Made by a program: the position numbers and the translations under genes
In this document: piece by piece, positions 1 to 9,583 of the stretch
How positions within the stretch are numbered: the stretch's first letter is position 1
How the letters are laid out: each line of letters starts with the position of its first letter
The notes under the pieces: generated by a model
Database searches by the model: none
Seen by the model: only the letters and a program-made list of their open reading frames with translations
Told to the model about the DNA's origin: nothing
Source of the DNA: a virus
Taxonomy: Duplodnaviria > Heunggongvirae > Uroviricota > Caudoviricetes
Strand: one strand, 5' to 3'
DNA length: 9,583 nucleotides
Virus record (IMG/VR): IMGVR_UViG_2617271049_000002

Positions 1-11
1 CGCATCCAGCA

Positions 12-491
12 TTATCCCGCCCCCGTCATACCCGTGAATTTAGTCGCCATACTGCCAGCCTTACCGATGAGCGATTCCGCCTGTTTACCGATATCGCCAT
101 AAAGCGCGGCCAGTGATTCATCAACGCGGGTGAGCGACAGCGTAAAATCAATTTTCCGGGGTGTGCCGTCTGCAAAGAAAATACTCCCTGTTTCACTCAC
201 CCTGCTGATGACATACATGCCGTAAATCATGCCGGTGCCATCCAGCAACGGCCACGCCCGGCCTTCCTCTGCCATCAGCCTGAGCGTGGTCATCGTCAGC
301 TTGCCGCCGGTCAGTTCGGGATAAAGCACGCCGGCAAGCGTGATGTTTTCCTCACCCACACCGAGAAACTGGTAGGCATCCCGTTTACCGATACGGGAAT
401 TTGACGGCCAGCGATAATCTGATTCACGCTGCATGGTCTGGTGTGGCAGCGTCTGGCGCATAAAAACAAACATACCTAACGCGAGCATCAT
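12..491 (-). CDS. U: Tail protein gpU (P2 U-like tail terminator / tail completion protein), 159 aa
   Basis: Complete ORF with a TAA stop at 12..14, lying directly downstream of the tape measure gene as in P2 (T-U-D). Its size and sequence (…YRWPSNSRIGKRDAYQFLGVGEENITLAGVLYPELTGG…) match my memory of P2 gpU. The start could be either of the two adjacent Met codons. Confidence 0.88.
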   Translation of the reverse strand: MMLALGMFVFMRQTLPHQTMQRESDYRWPSNSRIGKRDAYQFLGVGEENITLAGVLYPELTGGKLTMTTLRLMAEEGRAWPLLDGTGMIYGMYVISRVSETGSIFFADGTPRKIDFTLSLTRVDESLAALYGDIGKQAESLIGKAGSMATKFTGMTGAG

Positions 492-3810: not shown

Positions 3811-5001
3811 TTAATTGCTGTTAACCGAGGTGACCAGATTTGCCAGATATTTATCAGTAATACGCTGGCGCAGGGTCAGGTTTTCGAGAGGAGGCACCGG
3901 GGTATAGTCATAGTCGATATACAGTTTTCCGGCCTTGAGGGTTTCCGCATCGTTGGATTCTTCGCTGAACCAGCAGGTCGCATCCACGATATAGCCGTTT
4001 GTTTTCAGCTCACGGAATTTGGCATTGATGCCGTCAACGATGTCGCGAATCAGCGTTGCGGTGATGGGCTTATCCACCGCCCACATGTGCGCCTCAGCCA
4101 TCGTGTCGGCCAGCACCTGCGCGGTGCGGGTGTAGTTTTCAAAGAGGAACAGTGGGTCATCAGAGCAGGTACGGTTACCCCAGAAGCGGAAACCGTCACG
4201 GCGAATCAGCGTTGTGACACCTGACTCGTTCAACAGGTCAGCATCGGTGCCGGACTCCTGCAAATCCCAGAATACAGAGGCGCTGATGCCGGTAACACCG
4301 TTTACCCCGACATTGGACAGCGTTTTATGCCAGCCCTGCTCCTGGTCGATTTTAGCGCGCAGACCCAGCGCACGGGCGGTGGCATACGCGGTGGCGGTGG
4401 TGCTGCTGACCGTATCCCATGCGAGGAAATCCGGCCAGATGACCATCAGCTCACGCTGGCTGAAATTCTGGCGGTAGGCTTTCACCTCGGAAATAGTCTT
4501 ACAGCCCCATGCGCTGATATATCCGAAAGCGCGCAGCTTCTGACAGACGGATGCCAGTGCAACAGCCACCTCTTTGGTATCCAGTCCCGGCACACCGAGA
4601 ATACGCGGTTTAACACCGGTTACCGACTCCGCCGCCAGCAGGGCTTTCAGTCCGGTGTACTGACCGTTTTCGTCGGTGGTGCCGATGATATTGGAAACGG
4701 TCTGCGCGAGTTTCGTTTCTTCGTCATCGCCGGTGCCGTCTTCCACGCGCACGACAACGGTGACCGGTTTTGACTGGTCGGCGATGGCCTGCAACGATGC
4801 CGCCAGCGTGCCTTTTTTACCGGCCTTTGCAATTGCGCTCTGCACATTGGTAATCAGCACAGGTTTATTGAGGGGGAAGGTTTCCGCATCCGCATCGCTG
4901 GCCGTGCAGACCATGCCGACAATGGCCGTGGATACGGTGGAAATGACGCGGGTGCCGTCGTTAATCTCCAGCACCTGCACGCCGTGATGATAGTCGCTCA
5001 T
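3811..5001 (-). CDS. FI: Contractile tail sheath protein gpFI, 396 aa
   Basis: 396-aa ORF starting MSDYHHGVQVLEINDGTRVISTVSTAIVGMVCTASDADAETFPLNKPVLITN…, which I recognise as near-identical to P2 FI. A GGAG Shine-Dalgarno lies 8 nt upstream of the ATG (minus strand caccGGAGttaaacggATG). Confidence 0.93.
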   Translation of the reverse strand: MSDYHHGVQVLEINDGTRVISTVSTAIVGMVCTASDADAETFPLNKPVLITNVQSAIAKAGKKGTLAASLQAIADQSKPVTVVVRVEDGTGDDEETKLAQTVSNIIGTTDENGQYTGLKALLAAESVTGVKPRILGVPGLDTKEVAVALASVCQKLRAFGYISAWGCKTISEVKAYRQNFSQRELMVIWPDFLAWDTVSSTTATAYATARALGLRAKIDQEQGWHKTLSNVGVNGVTGISASVFWDLQESGTDADLLNESGVTTLIRRDGFRFWGNRTCSDDPLFLFENYTRTAQVLADTMAEAHMWAVDKPITATLIRDIVDGINAKFRELKTNGYIVDATCWFSEESNDAETLKAGKLYIDYDYTPVPPLENLTLRQRITDKYLANLVTSVNSN

Positions 5002-5095: not shown

Positions 5096-5123
5096 ATAAA
5101 GAAAATGCGGGCAATTCGCCCGC
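5095..5123 (-). terminator. Rho-independent terminator closing the island (or H-G read-through) transcript
   Basis: An all-G:C 6-bp stem gcgggc/gcccgc (5107..5112 pairs with 5118..5123) has a 5-nt loop. On the minus strand it is followed directly by ATTTTCTTTATCTGTT. It lies between the stop of the second island gene and the FI promoter region. Confidence 0.55.
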
Positions 5124-5184
5124 CTGTCCTGATTTGTACTCACTCATTTTCCGCCTGACAATTTACATAGCCCAAATGCTATCA

Positions 5185-5219
5185 AATCTGACAGTCTGCT
5201 TTGAGCGAGGAGCGGAAGT
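5185..5219. repeat. Left arm of a 35-bp imperfect inverted repeat flanking the AT-rich island
   Basis: aatctgacagtc-tgctttgagcg-aggagcggaagt compared with the reverse complement of 7458..7492, aatctgacagtc-cgctctgtgcc-aggagcggaagt. The two 12-nt blocks are identical and the middle block matches 7/11, giving 31/35 overall. Confidence 0.75.
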
Positions 5220-5276
5220 TCGCTTTGCTCCCGTGTTAATAGTGGGTATTAATCAATCGGGAGCATAACCATAGAA

Positions 5277-6434
5277 TTAGCTGTTTGATTCAGCATCAGC
5301 AACTTTTCTATATTTAGTAAGCAATTCTACTTTACGTAATTCAATCTCACGCATAATGTTTGATTGAATATCATGTATTTTAGAGGGCGACGCACCTTTA
5401 ACCTTTATATTTATAAAGGTAATGCACAATTCAGGATTAACAGGGGTTTTTCTTCCATATTCACTAAACTCGTATGCAACCTTACATTCACCTGAATAGG
5501 ATTCATAGCTAATTGTGTAACTTGCGACAACCTTAGTAACACGTACATACGGGTGTATGTGTTTCCATTTGATAGATATTATATTCTCTAGATTTCCTTT
5601 GACTCTATACTGGTCAATATCTTTTTCGAGAAAATTAGTCACAGCATCTGATTGTTTTTCGTAACCAGTAGAATGATCCGGATTAAAATGAACATCATCT
5701 ATTTTTTGATGGTAGAATAAGTATCCAATATGAAGGGATGCTAATTCATTAAGGAATTTTACTCTGTTTTCATTTTCAAAATCATCCATCAGAACTCTAC
5801 CTCGATGAGGCGAATGTTCAATTATATTATTTCTTTCCAAATGCTCCTCTATCAAGGTTATGACATTTTCAGCTATTTCTTTAGTTTCCGGAGATGTGTG
5901 ATTTAGTTTTACATTCATTAAAAGCTGGGAGTTACCAGTGATGCCATTAACGTCTTTCTTGATTTCCACAGATCCTTTAAAGAACTTCTCAGTTATATAC
6001 CAATCATCTAGAATATCTGTCTTGCAAATTTCGAACTCCATTATTACGGAATTATTACTTCTACCATCTAGAGATGTAAAATCGCTAAAATCTGATATCT
6101 CATAATTAATGTAACCATTTTTTGTGATTTTACTAACATCTACAAACCCACTAACTTCACCAAGCAAATCAACATCTTGCTTAAGATCAAAATTCCTGAA
6201 ATTTACTTTATCTAATTTTTCCTTTGTTTTAATACTGCTTAGTAAATCATAAGATTCATCAGGGCTTAGTAAAGAGGTGATCAAGTTTGGAACTGTGCCT
6301 GATTTTTCAGACACTCCGCAAAAAAGCCCTCTTTCTTTAAGTAGATTATTGATCATTGTAGAGCTACAGTTCTGCTGGCTCACAAGATTTTTCAGTTCAT
6401 CTCCGGAGGGGATGAAATCAATATCATTTTTCAT
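5277..6434 (-). CDS. Island gene B: hypothetical protein, 385 aa, no recognisable domain (candidate partner in a defence system)
   Basis: Long uninterrupted ORF in AT-rich DNA. The preferred start is the ATG at 6434..6432 (MKNDIDFIPSGDELKNLV…), because it is preceded by AGGAG at 6447..6443 with an 8-nt spacer. That start overlaps the stop of gene A by 11 nt. The track's longer start at 6470 has no RBS and would overlap gene A by 47 nt. I found no Walker A, HxH, HEPN (Rx4-6H), TIR or helicase motif. Confidence 0.8.
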   Translation of the reverse strand: MKNDIDFIPSGDELKNLVSQQNCSSTMINNLLKERGLFCGVSEKSGTVPNLITSLLSPDESYDLLSSIKTKEKLDKVNFRNFDLKQDVDLLGEVSGFVDVSKITKNGYINYEISDFSDFTSLDGRSNNSVIMEFEICKTDILDDWYITEKFFKGSVEIKKDVNGITGNSQLLMNVKLNHTSPETKEIAENVITLIEEHLERNNIIEHSPHRGRVLMDDFENENRVKFLNELASLHIGYLFYHQKIDDVHFNPDHSTGYEKQSDAVTNFLEKDIDQYRVKGNLENIISIKWKHIHPYVRVTKVVASYTISYESYSGECKVAYEFSEYGRKTPVNPELCITFINIKVKGASPSKIHDIQSNIMREIELRKVELLTKYRKVADAESNS

Positions 6435-7350
6435 CAGAAATGCTCCTGAAGGTGCTATTATAAGAATCAACGATTAATGTAATATCTCCAACGACATCCT
6501 CAGAGCCATCTTCAAAATTTTGCGCCATTTTGACTTCATCAACTGAAGGGGAGTCTGTGAGTTTATTATATTTATTGAAATAAATCTCATAATGATTTGC
6601 GAAATCGGAACAAAGCTTTCTAGCTAATTTATACACCAACCCTAGTGATTCTTTACTGTAATTAAAATCGCAAAGTAATATAAATTTTCGCCCATTATCA
6701 TCAGGCACAGAAATGGGAATTATTGGAGAGGTAATGTATTCAACAGGCATTATTTTAGAATGTCTTGTTGAAGATGAAACATTTAAGGTAGTGTTAAGAC
6801 AGAAAAAAGATATTTCACCATGCTTTTTCTTGATAAAGCTTATCGAGTTGTATAAAAATTTTGCTCTTGCGTTATCAACGAGATGTATGGCGTTGAACTT
6901 GAGGGTAGAATCGATTCTATGATTGATGATTTCACCTTTAATATTATCATTTGAATCGCTTTCATCATTATTTAAATAAAACAAAACCCCAATATCTTCT
7001 TTTCTTGAACTACCTGGAAATTGTCTTGTTATGGTTCTTTTAAACTGGGATTTTGAATAACATTCAATGGTGTGTGCCAAGTCTTTGAAATGTGAGCGAA
7101 AAGTAGTTTTGACTTTATCGTAAGGTACTGATGAATACTTTGCAGAAACAACAACGCTTACTAATGATTGTTTTTGAAGCATAGAGTTGTAGACATACAA
7201 AGCATCTATTCCATGTGTCTTTTTAGCATGTTCTCCCACGCAGCAATCTAATTGCTTGTTACTACATAGGTTTTTCCATCCAAAGAGTTTCAGAAAGTCA
7301 TTGACTATCTCTTCGCCCACCTCGCCGACATATTTTGAGAACTCGCCCAT
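6424..7350 (-). CDS. Island gene A: hypothetical protein, 308 aa, with an N-terminal PD-(D/E)xK-like (Mrr/DUF4365-like) putative nuclease core
   Basis: Long ORF in AT-rich DNA. The N-terminus reads GEVGEEIVNDFLKLFGW (acidic helix ending in G-W), then HGID49ALYVY (beta-strand Asp), then SLVSVVVS69AK71Y (hydrophobic strand followed by S-x-K). This is the order and spacing of restriction-endonuclease-fold cores (E…D…(E/Q/S)xK). The C-terminal ~220 aa are unassigned. Confidence 0.8.
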   Translation of the reverse strand: MGEFSKYVGEVGEEIVNDFLKLFGWKNLCSNKQLDCCVGEHAKKTHGIDALYVYNSMLQKQSLVSVVVSAKYSSVPYDKVKTTFRSHFKDLAHTIECYSKSQFKRTITRQFPGSSRKEDIGVLFYLNNDESDSNDNIKGEIINHRIDSTLKFNAIHLVDNARAKFLYNSISFIKKKHGEISFFCLNTTLNVSSSTRHSKIMPVEYITSPIIPISVPDDNGRKFILLCDFNYSKESLGLVYKLARKLCSDFANHYEIYFNKYNKLTDSPSVDEVKMAQNFEDGSEDVVGDITLIVDSYNSTFRSISDEK

Positions 7351-7385
7351 TACCTAAACCGCCGTCTATTAAATTATAATTCTTT

Positions 7386-7414
7386 ATAGTATTAATCTTA
7401 TTCACATTTATCAA
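7386..7414 (-). promoter_or_regulatory. Putative sigma70 promoter of the island operon (TTGATA-N17-TACTAT)
   Basis: Minus strand reads TTGATA (7414..7409), a 17-nt spacer, then TACTAT (7391..7386), about 36 nt upstream of the gene A ATG. A perfect TATAAT also occurs at 7378..7373 but has no good -35. AT-rich DNA produces such matches by chance. Confidence 0.45.
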
Positions 7415-7457
7415 CATTAGGAGTAAGCAAGACGAATTAGTAGTGAGTCATCAATCG

Positions 7458-7492
7458 ACTTCCGCTCCTGGCACAGAGCGGACTGTCAGATT
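7458..7492. repeat. Right arm of the 35-bp imperfect inverted repeat flanking the AT-rich island
   Basis: acttccgctcct-ggcacagagcg-gactgtcagatt is the reverse complement (31/35) of 5185..5219. It overlaps a local hairpin with a perfect 9-bp stem, ggcacagag (7470..7478) pairing with ctctgtgcc (7501..7509). Confidence 0.75.
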
Positions 7493-7532
7493 AGGCTTTA
7501 CTCTGTGCCATAGATATGTAAGCTAATACAAC

Positions 7533-8060
7533 TTATTGCGGCATTTCCGGCCATTCAGGATTTGCAGGATCCACACGACTGACCAGAACGCTGTAGCGTT
7601 CCCATGATTCCAGTCGGCTACGCTCCTCATCTGTTGCCATGTTCAGTCTGACCGCGCGCTCCAGCGGCAAAATCACGGATTCAGCATCTGCAAGAAGTCT
7701 GGCTTTCTGAATTTCTGCCTGCTGCTGTAATTCCTCTGCCGTATAAATGCGTTTAATCACTTTGCCGTCCTTAAACATCCAGTTCCCTGAAATGTCCGCC
7801 CGTCGGTTAGCAGTAATATCCGCCACTTCAACAACACTTAATCCATCCGGTCTGATAGCTGTCACATCCTTTTCCACATAGTGGATGATATTATCTTTGT
7901 CGTACGCTATTTTTATCGTGTCATCAGCAAAATACTTTTGTTCTTCGTACCAGTTCTTACCATCTTCTGAAAAAAACCAGACAACATCAAAGTCCTTTGT
8001 CAATTGATATTGTTCAACCGTTTTTGGATTACCCGCCGTAATATTTTTTAAATGCTGCAT
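7533..8060 (-). CDS. G: Tail fibre assembly protein / chaperone gpG (Tfa family), 175 aa
   Basis: 175-aa ORF 3 nt downstream of the tail fibre gene, with the same size and position as P2 G. The C-terminal …[27 protein letters not shown] is typical of Tfa-family chaperones. Confidence 0.88.
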
Positions 8061-8063
8061 AAA

Positions 8064-9583
8064 TTATACCTGCGCCACGTTATACCATGTCCCGTTAATG
8101 TATTTCTGCACCGGTCTGTAATATACGCCACCAATGTTATCGGCAGAGTTTGAGCCGGTATCCTGAACAATAATGCCGGTATATACGCAACCTGACGGAG
8201 CCTGATGCGTCCATGTAGTACCATTATTTGCTGGTTTATATGTAGATGCACCGCCCAGCCGCATGTCTCTCACATAACGTGAATCTGATTCAGCTTTGGT
8301 GTATGCACCAACATCTCCCGCTGAGGGTTTATGAGCAGTTGTATATAGTTGCGCCCATCCAGACCAGTTAGCATCTGTGGTATCTCGTCGGGAGCGAATA
8401 TATGCCGGAGCATGAGCACCGCTGGTTCCACTCCAGCCAATAAGTAACTCACCCTCTCCTACTGCGGTTACGCCAGTGAGATGAAGCACATTACCATAGG
8501 CTGTTGGGTAGCCATTGTTGTATGCCTCATACATCTGAATACCTGGTGTCCCCTTTACGCTCCCACCTAATGCAGTAACACGGTTTCTGGATACCAGTGT
8601 ATTAATATTTATATCAGCAGAGCCATCAAATCTGACACCATTAATATTTCTTGCGTTCGCTAACTTCGTTGCTGTTGCAGCATTTCCCGAAAGGCTGGAA
8701 ATAAATGGATGTGAGCAGTAATAACCGCGCCCATTTTTAAAATCCAGAATAGCCTGTGCGTTCGTGCTTTCTGTAGCAGGATTAGTTGCCCCCCACTTAT
8801 ATGTCGTTTGACCGACGACATAATCCTCTGTCGGAACAATAACCGTTAGCCCTTCCTCTGCAAGAATTTGCACAGGGAAAGCTCTGGCTTCAACATAAAA
8901 AACACTACATACATCATCATCTTTCAGGCTTGTAACAATGGAATGGATTGAACGCTCATTAGTCTGATACGTCCAGAAATAACCTGCCGCATATGAACCA
9001 CGATCAGTCCAGCCTCCGGGCATAACCATGCCATTAAACTCGCAGTTATTCATTACATAATCGCTGTTATAACAACCAGTGGAAATAACGACGCGGGATG
9101 CCATTTCTCCTGAAAGGCTGGCAGCACGGCGAAAGATAACGGGATACCACTTCCCGGCAACGACATTTGCAGGGGCTGCAAACGAATACTTTCGCATTCC
9201 CTTTTTCTTATCCACTTCACCTTTGCTGTAAACATTAATGTTACTCAGGAAGCGTCCTTTATCAGGAATATCCGCACCGTTCTGATCTTTCTGAAGACGT
9301 TTTTCAGCATTGTCATAGGCAGACTTCACCGCTTTTGGTGTTGCGGCCTGCGTTTCAGAATCACTGTTGGTGGCGCTACTGAGCTGGACAAGGCCTTTCC
9401 GCGCGGTGGTGGCATCCTGTGCAGTGTATTTCCCGTTAGCAAGGTCATACGCTGTCTTAACCGCCTTTGGCGTTGCCGCAAGCGTTTCAGAATCGCTGTT
9501 GGTGACGCTACTGAGCTGGACAAGACCTTTTCGCGCTGTGGTGGCATCCTGTGCAGTGTATTTCCCGTTAGCAAGGTCATACG
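8064..9583 (-). CDS. H: Tail fibre protein gpH, C-terminal ~506 codons (5' end lies beyond the window)
   Basis: The track starts this ORF at a GTG (9329), but the same frame stays open up to the window edge. My translation of 9581..9330 is YDLANGKYTAQDATTARKGLVQLSSVTNSDSETLAATPKAVKTA repeated twice and running into …VKSAYDNAEKRLQKD. This is the conserved tail-fibre repeat motif shared by P2 H and related fibres. The gene is followed by the chaperone gene G. Confidence 0.9.
   Translation of the reverse strand, partial: YDLANGKYTAQDATTARKGLVQLSSVTNSDSETLAATPKAVKTAYDLANGKYTAQDATTARKGLVQLSSATNSDSETQAATPKAVKSAYDNAEKRLQKDQNGADIPDKGRFLSNINVYSKGEVDKKKGMRKYSFAAPANVVAGKWYPVIFRRAASLSGEMASRVVISTGCYNSDYVMNNCEFNGMVMPGGWTDRGSYAAGYFWTYQTNERSIHSIVTSLKDDDVCSVFYVEARAFPVQILAEEGLTVIVPTEDYVVGQTTYKWGATNPATESTNAQAILDFKNGRGYYCSHPFISSLSGNAATATKLANARNINGVRFDGSADININTLVSRNRVTALGGSVKGTPGIQMYEAYNNGYPTAYGNVLHLTGVTAVGEGELLIGWSGTSGAHAPAYIRSRRDTTDANWSGWAQLYTTAHKPSAGDVGAYTKAESDSRYVRDMRLGGASTYKPANNGTTWTHQAPSGCVYTGIIVQDTGSNSADNIGGVYYRPVQKYINGTWYNVAQV
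9318..9583 (-). repeat. Two tandem 132-nt (44-aa) near-identical repeats inside H encoding the conserved KGLVQLSS-TNSDSET-AATPKAVK-AYD fibre motif
   Basis: Copy 1 is 9581..9450 and copy 2 is 9449..9318, both beginning TATGACCTTGCTAACGGGAAATACACTGCACAGGATGCC. I saw only a handful of substitutions. A degenerate third unit starts at 9317 (YDNAEKRL…). Confidence 0.9.

Follow-up and report, generated by a model that had tools for sequence, protein, structure and literature searches.

Inverted repeats around the G-FI cargo of a P2-like prophage as probable ends of a transposase-less, IS481-type cargo transposon

The window studied here is a DNA stretch of 9,583 nucleotides from the virus record IMGVR_UViG_2617271049_000002 (Caudoviricetes), whose minus strand carries the tail module of a P2-like (Peduovirus) prophage with the genes U, T, E, FII, FI, G and H recognized by Pfam. 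The gap between G and FI holds a 2.2-kb stretch of about 32% GC, as against about 55% GC in the phage backbone, with two overlapping minus-strand genes, and this cargo is bracketed by a 35-bp imperfect inverted repeat. We conclude that the two arms of the repeat are probably the inner parts of terminal repeats of about 85 nt belonging to a non-autonomous cargo transposon that derives from an insertion sequence (IS) of the IS481 family and persists at this site as a fossil. The 35-bp repeat itself is an already known feature of the Z/fun region of P2.

Positions 5185-5219 of the window agree with the reverse complement of positions 7458-7492 at 31 of 35 positions, with two perfect 12-mers flanking a middle block that matches at 7/11, and the repeat described in the earlier note was thus confirmed on recomputation. 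The arms are spaced by 2238 nt. The pair is by far the strongest inverted repeat of the window, the runners-up being 19-22 nt long with 77-89% identity, and the chance expectation for such a pair in 9.6 kb is 1.7e-7 (binomial estimate). A BLAST search of the two boundary regions against phage records retrieved AJ512676-AJ512685, the 'proviral Z-region' of P2-EC isolates, in which a 'left inverted repeat' (3..115, beginning where G ends) and a 'right inverted repeat' (91 nt) are annotated that contain the 35-bp arms; the annotated repeats have the same sequence and the same place as the arms of the window. We take these records to belong to the work of Nilsson, Karlsson and Haggard-Ljungquist on the P2 Z/fun region (2004, Mol Biol Evol, pmid 12949155), where the repeats were reportedly interpreted in terms of site-specific recombination.

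The G-FI locus was compared in 80 viral contigs with FI proteins 86-100% identical to that of the window. Both arms are present at 49 loci (the window and reference records included), which enclose 33 unrelated cargo types at arm spacings of 838-4,099 nt, and in every filled locus the arms with their 12-mers stand at the boundaries of the cargo, as the earlier note had supposed. The FI-side arm ends 182-187 nt upstream of the FI start codon in all 49. In the alignments the homology shared across cargo types on the G side comprises G, a spacer of 40 or 52 nt and the arm, whose inner end is exactly where it breaks off; on the FI side it restarts, across the 33 types, exactly at the inner end of the other arm. 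Six empty loci with the same FI leader show no trace of either arm. In these, A[T/C] comes after the G stop (CAATAA) and is directly adjoined by a terminator-like hairpin, ACAGGCGGGC...GCCCGCCTTTTCTTT, the same hairpin that occupies 5107-5123 in the window. Read on the coding strand, a filled locus is ...gc-AATAAGT-[element]-AATCAGG-ACAGG... and an empty one ...gc-AATAAA[T/C]-ACAGG.... Because the arms are absent from the empty loci, they and about 50 nt outside each of them must belong to the insert and not to a split terminator. The arms do adjoin the AT-rich cargo. Their composition had been called backbone-like in the earlier note, but they do not belong to the phage backbone, being missing from the empty G-FI junctions of otherwise identical phages, and the uninterrupted palindrome that was looked for in the empty loci was found in none.

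No cargo was seen in both orientations among the 49 P2-site loci, and inversion of the cargo by recombination between the arms was rejected on account of this single orientation per cargo. A third class of G-FI loci (L005, L006, L010, L025-L027, L029, L035 and others, L numbers denoting the loci compared in this work) occurs in FI-identical phages with a different FI leader; there a Hin/Gin-like DNA invertase gene, with ...GALAEMERELIVERTRAGLEAARAKGRIGGRRPKL... in its translation, ends just upstream of FI, in the roughly 300 nt that precede it. Such phages presumably have a tail-fibre segment that can invert.

The same ends were found far from the G-FI locus. Searching one genome of each species with the arm's outer 22 nt turned up 35 loci, mostly in Enterobacterales (Erwinia, Morganella, Pectobacterium, Raoultella, Yersinia, Pantoea, Serratia, Xenorhabdus, Citrobacter, Klebsiella, Kosakonia, Lelliottia and Enterobacter). 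Hardly any of them lies near G, FI or H, and many form inverted pairs 1-6 kb apart; sites occupied in other prophages and islands are listed in Table 1. Occurrence of the Z/fun repeats in bacterial genomes outside phages has also been reported (summarized in PMC8987985). Two types of arm are constant everywhere, the F-type ...GTCTGCTTTGAGCG... and the G-type ...GTCCGCTCTGTGCC..., and it is because these types differ that the middle block of the repeat matches at only 7/11. All complete pairs with clearly typed ends consist of one F-type and one G-type end, and the ends adjoin unrelated genes in either orientation. The P2-type arm is carried by 1,150 of 5,426 complete Escherichia coli genomes, at a median of one and a maximum of three places, and the canonical end by 1,612 of them, at 1,804 places in all (median one). 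With a median of one copy per arm-bearing genome and with mobile elements as the context in every case inspected, a dispersed host repeat of the REP or ERIC kind, which the earlier note had wished to exclude, was indeed excluded.

Some of these loci have further peculiarities of the arm. A variant arm sequence is found also in L085, L093, L108, L110 and L119. In L089 (2417-3638) and L090 (322-1542) an IS of the IS30 family, encoding a transposase of 386 aa (NF033563), sits within the F-type arm, which it splits at ...TTTGAGC|GAGGAGC..., at the same dinucleotide in different species and in both orientations, with a 2-bp GC duplication and with inverted repeats of its own. It seems, then, that this IS has a hot target in the arm. 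The transposase of the IS was considered as the mobilizing enzyme and rejected as part of a secondary insertion. Some loci lack a transposase gene, and all that follows the arm there is the IS-end-like sequence TGTGAGTTCAAC.

Outside each arm the canonical elements have 50 more conserved nucleotides, beginning with TGTATTAGCTCAGACTTGAyCTGAC, and together with the arm these make a terminal inverted repeat of 85 nt with TGT...ACA termini. The canonical ends, TGTATTAGCTC...GAGCTAATACA, bear the TG...CA dinucleotides and match at 11/11 in most elements; the terminus contains the motif GATCTGACA and the arm the motif AATCTGACAGTC. Directly outside the termini there is a 7-bp direct repeat whose sequence varies by site. 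In the first eight pairs it agreed at 7/7 positions in five, at 6/7 in two and at 5/7 in the window. A metagenome scan for the terminus added 120 loci. After pooling, 33 pairs had clear termini, and among these the 7-bp repeat is perfect in 19 and matches at six or more positions in 24, while perfect repeats of 5, 8 or 9 bp do not occur and there are two of 6 bp. The elements measure 731-7,510 bp. One cargo of 6.5 kb is found, with 98.8% identity, at two sites with different perfect duplications (CTTTATC in L139 and CATCACC in L148), from which it follows that the whole element has moved; L179 and L193 likewise have the same element at different sites. The 98 cargo ORFs (open reading frames), searched with PADLOC and Pfam, include defence genes (OLD-like ATPase-Toprim, PARIS AriA with DUF4435 (AriB), RT-TIR, PD-T7-1, and CBASS E1-E2 with effector and SAVED-HNH) as well as ordinary accessory genes (ArsB, LysR/MFS, hydrolases).

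At one chromosomal site, flanked by the 7-mer CTTTATC, elements of 6,708, 3,389 and 1,400 bp were found in L139, L135 and L140 (and L183), which indicates that cargo is turned over within fixed ends outside P2-like phages too. Metagenomes, from soil among others, contain very small foldback relatives of the terminus: in L152 (2726-2772) two termini joined back to back form a perfect palindrome of 47 nt, and in L132 (3287-3361) there is a 75-nt element with a short loop. No clear 7-bp flanking duplication was detected around either of them.

ISs with which they have the start of the terminus in common are the likely origin of the ends. The first 26 nt of the terminus, TGTATTAGCTCAGACTTGATCTGACA, also end ISs of about 1.2 kb in L171, L175, L220 and L244, whose sole ORF encodes an IS481-family transposase (NF033577; 286-287 bits, cut-off 224). 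A subset of the metagenome matches has only the first 26-29 nt of the terminus in common, and in seven of these an rve-type transposase gene ends 86-140 nt inside the terminus. Perfect 7-bp duplications surround the IS in L220 (GATGAAG) and in L244 (CATAATC), the latter being a 1,201-bp copy with both termini (locus positions 535-1735, with the transposase at 637-1677) on the Salmonella plasmid NZ_CP033339.1. Homologues of the transposase with 88-89% identity, annotated as 'IS481 family transposase', are encoded on 773 plasmids, mainly of Salmonella and Escherichia. Members of the IS481 family have TG..CA ends and generate duplications of 2-15 bp, most often of 6 bp (PMC10045372), so a length of 7 bp is compatible with the family. 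The ISs thus resemble the cargo elements in the first 26 nt of the terminus, the TG..CA ends and the 7-bp target duplication, but differ from them in having a transposase of their own and inverted repeats of just about 26-30 nt. The 35-bp arm is confined to the cargo elements, whereas the IS has a related 12-mer about 48 nt from one end and in the opposite orientation. With tblastn no IS481 transposase was found inside the F/G cargo elements, whose mobilization would accordingly take place in trans. In L171 a second terminus-like sequence, TGTATTAGCTTAGACTTAAATTGATAG (8753-8790), lies 27 nt past the autonomous IS481-type element and adjoins a P4-type integrase, which points to an older element beside which the IS may have inserted or with which it may be nested.

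The element at the G-FI locus can be pictured as a 'mobile insertion cassette' with one F-type and one G-type end, TGT...ACA termini and a 7-bp target duplication. Having no transposase, it would have been moved in trans, probably by the enzyme of the 1.2-kb IS481-family ISs that are common on enterobacterial plasmids. In the window it extends from 5135 to 7530, between the G stop codon and the G-operon terminator (Table 1). Its insertion at the P2 site appears to be old, and the outer 50 nt of both ends as well as the target duplication would have decayed since: in the window the outer 50 nt has an identity of 0.62 to the canonical ends, which share 0.82 among themselves, while the arms retain 0.81 to the canonical sequence and the F arm is identical at 35/35 positions to ends in Lelliottia (L111) and in a metagenome bin (L114). 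The G-side terminus, TGTATTAGCTT, agrees with the canonical one at 10/11. The outer halves, P2-specific and decayed, recur together with the decayed duplication in each of the 33 cargo types, which speaks for one old insertion and not for 33 separate ones. The segment 7493-7530 lacks 12 nt (GAGCTCTGGTGT-like) found in most P2-site copies, and the same deletion was observed in phage L-413C (L003) and in L038.

Thereafter the cargo would be replaced as incoming elements recombine with resident ones and cross over in the conserved arms or close to them, and at the P2 site such exchange is most likely the route rather than fresh transposition each time. A cargo gene shared by L072 (P2 site) and L202 (an unrelated site) keeps about 93% identity through the inner 17 nt or so of the arm, after which the similarity drops, and this junction fits an exchange of the cargo with the inner arm by a crossover in the conserved part. 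The idea that the arms are recombination anchors for trading cassettes between P2-like phages is therefore retained in part: they are the most plausible anchors and one junction maps inside an arm, but the same ends occur also well outside these phages.

Table 1. Coordinates of the features discussed in the window and sites of the same ends at other loci
Feature	Position or locus	Strand	Remarks
FI tail sheath gene, downstream backbone neighbour	3811..5001	-	Pfam Phage_sheath_1, Phage_sheath_1C, Gp18_domIII_N
Terminator-like hairpin, intact, phage backbone outside the element	5097..5123 (hairpin 5107-5123)	-	GCGGGCGAATTGCCCGC then ATTTTCTTTA; terminator scan
FI-side copy of the putative 7-bp target duplication, decayed, CCTGATT	5128..5134	.	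5/7 to ACTTATT at 7531-7537
Outer 50 nt of the probable F-type terminal inverted repeat, decayed	5135..5184	.	terminus TGTACTCACTC, 8/11 to canonical TGTATTAGCTC
Left arm, probable inner 35 nt of the F-type terminal repeat	5185..5219	.	AATCTGACAGTCTGCTTTGAGCGAGGAGCGGAAGT; 35/35 to F-type ends in L111 and L114
gapS4b, cargo gene	5277..6434	-	NCBIfam NF047934, 324 bits vs cut-off 300; RefSeq annotation of identical DNA
gapS4a, cargo gene	6424..7350	-	NCBIfam NF047933, 291 bits vs cut-off 270; RefSeq annotation of identical DNA
Right arm, probable inner 35 nt of the G-type terminal repeat	7458..7492	.	homology across 33 cargo types stops at inner end
Outer part of the probable G-type terminal repeat, 38 nt	7493..7530	.	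terminus ...AAGCTAATACA, 10/11
G-side copy of the putative 7-bp target duplication, ACTTATT	7531..7537	.	contains G stop codon 7533-7535
G tail-fibre assembly gene, upstream backbone neighbour	7533..8060	-	Pfam Caudo_TAP
Ends just downstream of lambdoid antiterminator Q gene	L099		
Ends just downstream of P4-type integrase adjoining cysS	L114		
Ends in the gpA-gpQ hotspot of Rousset et al., just downstream of P2 gpA	L110		
Ends downstream of the integrase of a tRNA-Leu island	E. coli HS and O157:H7		
Ends between Q region and lysis genes of a lambdoid prophage	E. coli ST2747		

Several points weigh against this reconstruction. The termini in the window are weak (8/11 and 10/11, a 12-nt deletion on the G side and a duplication of 5/7), and transposition could not be proved from the window alone. 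What the cargo elements have in common with the autonomous IS is the first 26-29 nt only, positions 27-85 including the arms being specific to the cargo elements, and it is from sequence likeness that an IS481-type transposase would be expected to bind and move the F and G ends. The model of crossovers in the arms draws on one mapped junction, about 23 conserved nucleotides are short for RecA-dependent recombination, and turnover of the cargo might instead proceed by repeated site-specific insertion or through a dedicated recombinase at the arms. As to priority, the searchable literature, which excluded Nilsson et al. 2004, yielded no account of a cargo element derived from IS481 at these loci, and some of this may be described in that paper.

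The arms could alternatively, as Nilsson et al. 2004 reportedly proposed, be the targets at which a dedicated site-specific recombinase exchanges cassettes between phages and the chromosomes of bacteria. The annotation of the repeats in the GenBank records would suit such an enzyme, as would the razor-sharp cargo boundaries at the inner ends of the arms in 33 cargo types and the single site with its flanking 7-mer that holds different cargo in L139, L135 and L140. No recombinase travels with the cassettes, however, and their surroundings have different integrases or none nearby; the flanking 7-bp repeats vary by site as target duplications do, unlike crossover cores, and the TG..CA termini are common with an IS of the DDE-transposase kind. 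The elements do not qualify as site-specific cassettes of the integron type either, given that neither a constant crossover core nor a common recombinase was found across the contexts examined. We consider this explanation unlikely for the element as a whole; a trans-acting recombinase might act at the cassette junctions, and a site-specific recombinase could account for the cargo-replacement step alone.

Two further explanations, in which the arms are parts of a nucleic acid structure or of a regulatory device, fared worse; the earlier note had raised the split terminator and the looping regulator. Were the arms the halves of an ancestral long hairpin, such as the G-operon terminator, split by cargo at its apex, then removal of the cargo would restore a long stem, and the foldback relatives of 47 nt (L152) and 75 nt (L132) have that appearance. 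But the six empty loci have neither arm, the terminator-like hairpin stands there directly after the G stop and is intact in the window outside the repeat, and the arms are at least 838 nt apart in all 49 two-armed P2-site loci (no dedicated search for a cargo-less pair was made), which leaves the split hairpin barely conceivable. A regulatory role, with the arms as protein-binding sites that loop out the island or as RNA or DNA stems insulating the cargo from late transcription, would agree with the intergenic position of each arm and with the conserved 6-9-bp stem of the G-type end. The pairing of 7470-7478 with 7501-7509 over 9 bp is exact, as had been claimed, and is present in the predicted fold, and the left-hand stem forms roughly where it had been placed, but in a region that folds no better than shuffled sequence. 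This applies to both arm regions (z = -0.1 to -1.7), the G-end stem is kept as sequence with almost no compensatory change (covariation term -0.19), and an Rfam search gave no family match in or near the arms; the local hairpins were therefore dropped as functional structures. The inner 12-mers, which in a first table seemed to co-vary, are at the P2 site no more alike within one element than between different elements (8.21 versus 8.02 positions, p=0.18 in a permutation test), so the idea of pairing between the arms was abandoned; away from this site a weak covariation signal was obtained (p=0.009, permutation test). The same ends moreover stand beside unrelated genes in either orientation. 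Looping by a regulator thus received no support, and we regard a regulatory function of the arms as highly improbable.

Read as a transposon without a transposase, the element has close counterparts. Mobile insertion cassettes (MICs) and MITEs (miniature inverted-repeat transposable elements) are IS derivatives of the non-autonomous kind with or without passenger genes, exemplified by MIC231 of the Bacillus cereus group. The cargo elements are like them in terminal inverted repeats, a duplication of fixed length, lack of a transposase, passenger genes and occurrence of the same element at several sites. They are unlike them in their IS481-family-type ends, the unusual length of the 85-nt repeats and the two distinct end types, as well as in favouring insertion sites just downstream of prophage and integrase-island genes and in turning over their cargo inside fixed, partly decayed ends. 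To the description of the Z/fun repeats the present analysis adds, as far as that description could be read, the TG..CA termini, the 7-bp duplications, the F/G polarity and the terminus shared with the IS481 family. The P2-like hotspots analysed by Rousset et al. (2022, PMC9122126) resemble the G-FI locus as variable prophage loci with anti-phage systems, and L110 lies inside their gpA-gpQ hotspot. That study dealt with gpA-gpQ and psu-int and not with G-FI; it left the exchange mechanism open and suggested cos-end recombination, never mentioned transposons and used the word 'repeats' of protein repeats only (PMC9122126).

The cargo of the window belongs to GAPS4, since gapS4a and gapS4b are adjacent and each scores above its curated NCBIfam cut-off. 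Nothing useful on these two genes came from PADLOC or Pfam, and the system was identified via NCBIfam and the RefSeq annotation of identical DNA from E. coli EH01-18-02 (NZ_CP063518.1), where it is part of a complete prophage located between yegQ and yegR. This cargo is present in just 3 of the 5,426 complete E. coli genomes. GAPS4, an anti-phage system, has been described as a DNase that DNA breaks trigger (bioRxiv 10.1101/2025.09.07.674715). At the right edge of the window, within the coding region of the H tail fibre, a 132-nt unit is present in two tandem copies that are 88% identical (9306-9569). The EH01-18-02 prophage (L245) has a lone opposite-strand gene for a 'hypothetical protein' between baseplate gene V and a virion morphogenesis gene (18735-19520, +). 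This could be a further moron site; terminal repeats were not detected at it. In that prophage the gpA-Q variable locus contains retron-like cargo with a reverse-transcriptase gene, and between this cargo and the portal gene Q, at about 29001-29040, there is a degenerate terminus-like stretch, TGTATAACGACGCAGACTTCCTGACAGTTCTATC; neither an arm nor a partner end was found at this locus.

Prophage and satellite hotspots hold a large share of the anti-phage arsenal of E. coli, and their fast exchange is an acknowledged open question (PMC9122126). Reading the Z/fun repeats as the probable ends of a transposase-less IS481-type transposon would recast a known feature of P2, link variable loci across P2-like phages, lambdoid prophages and chromosomal islands, account for the sharp cargo boundaries and make the mechanism of exchange directly testable. 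The 85-nt ends with the 7-bp duplication provide a sequence signature for finding cargo cassettes, including uncharacterized defence systems, in enterobacterial genomes and metagenomes. We put forward more tentatively, as something that may well prove otherwise, that repeat-bounded cassettes are a general loading vehicle, arriving in trans by IS481-type transposition and then offering their arms as portable homology for cargo swaps. If this is true, the vehicle would serve the G-FI and gpA-Q loci of P2-like phages, lambdoid prophages and integrase islands across Enterobacterales, would carry many defence genes, and would explain in concrete molecular terms how prophage defence hotspots turn over so rapidly.

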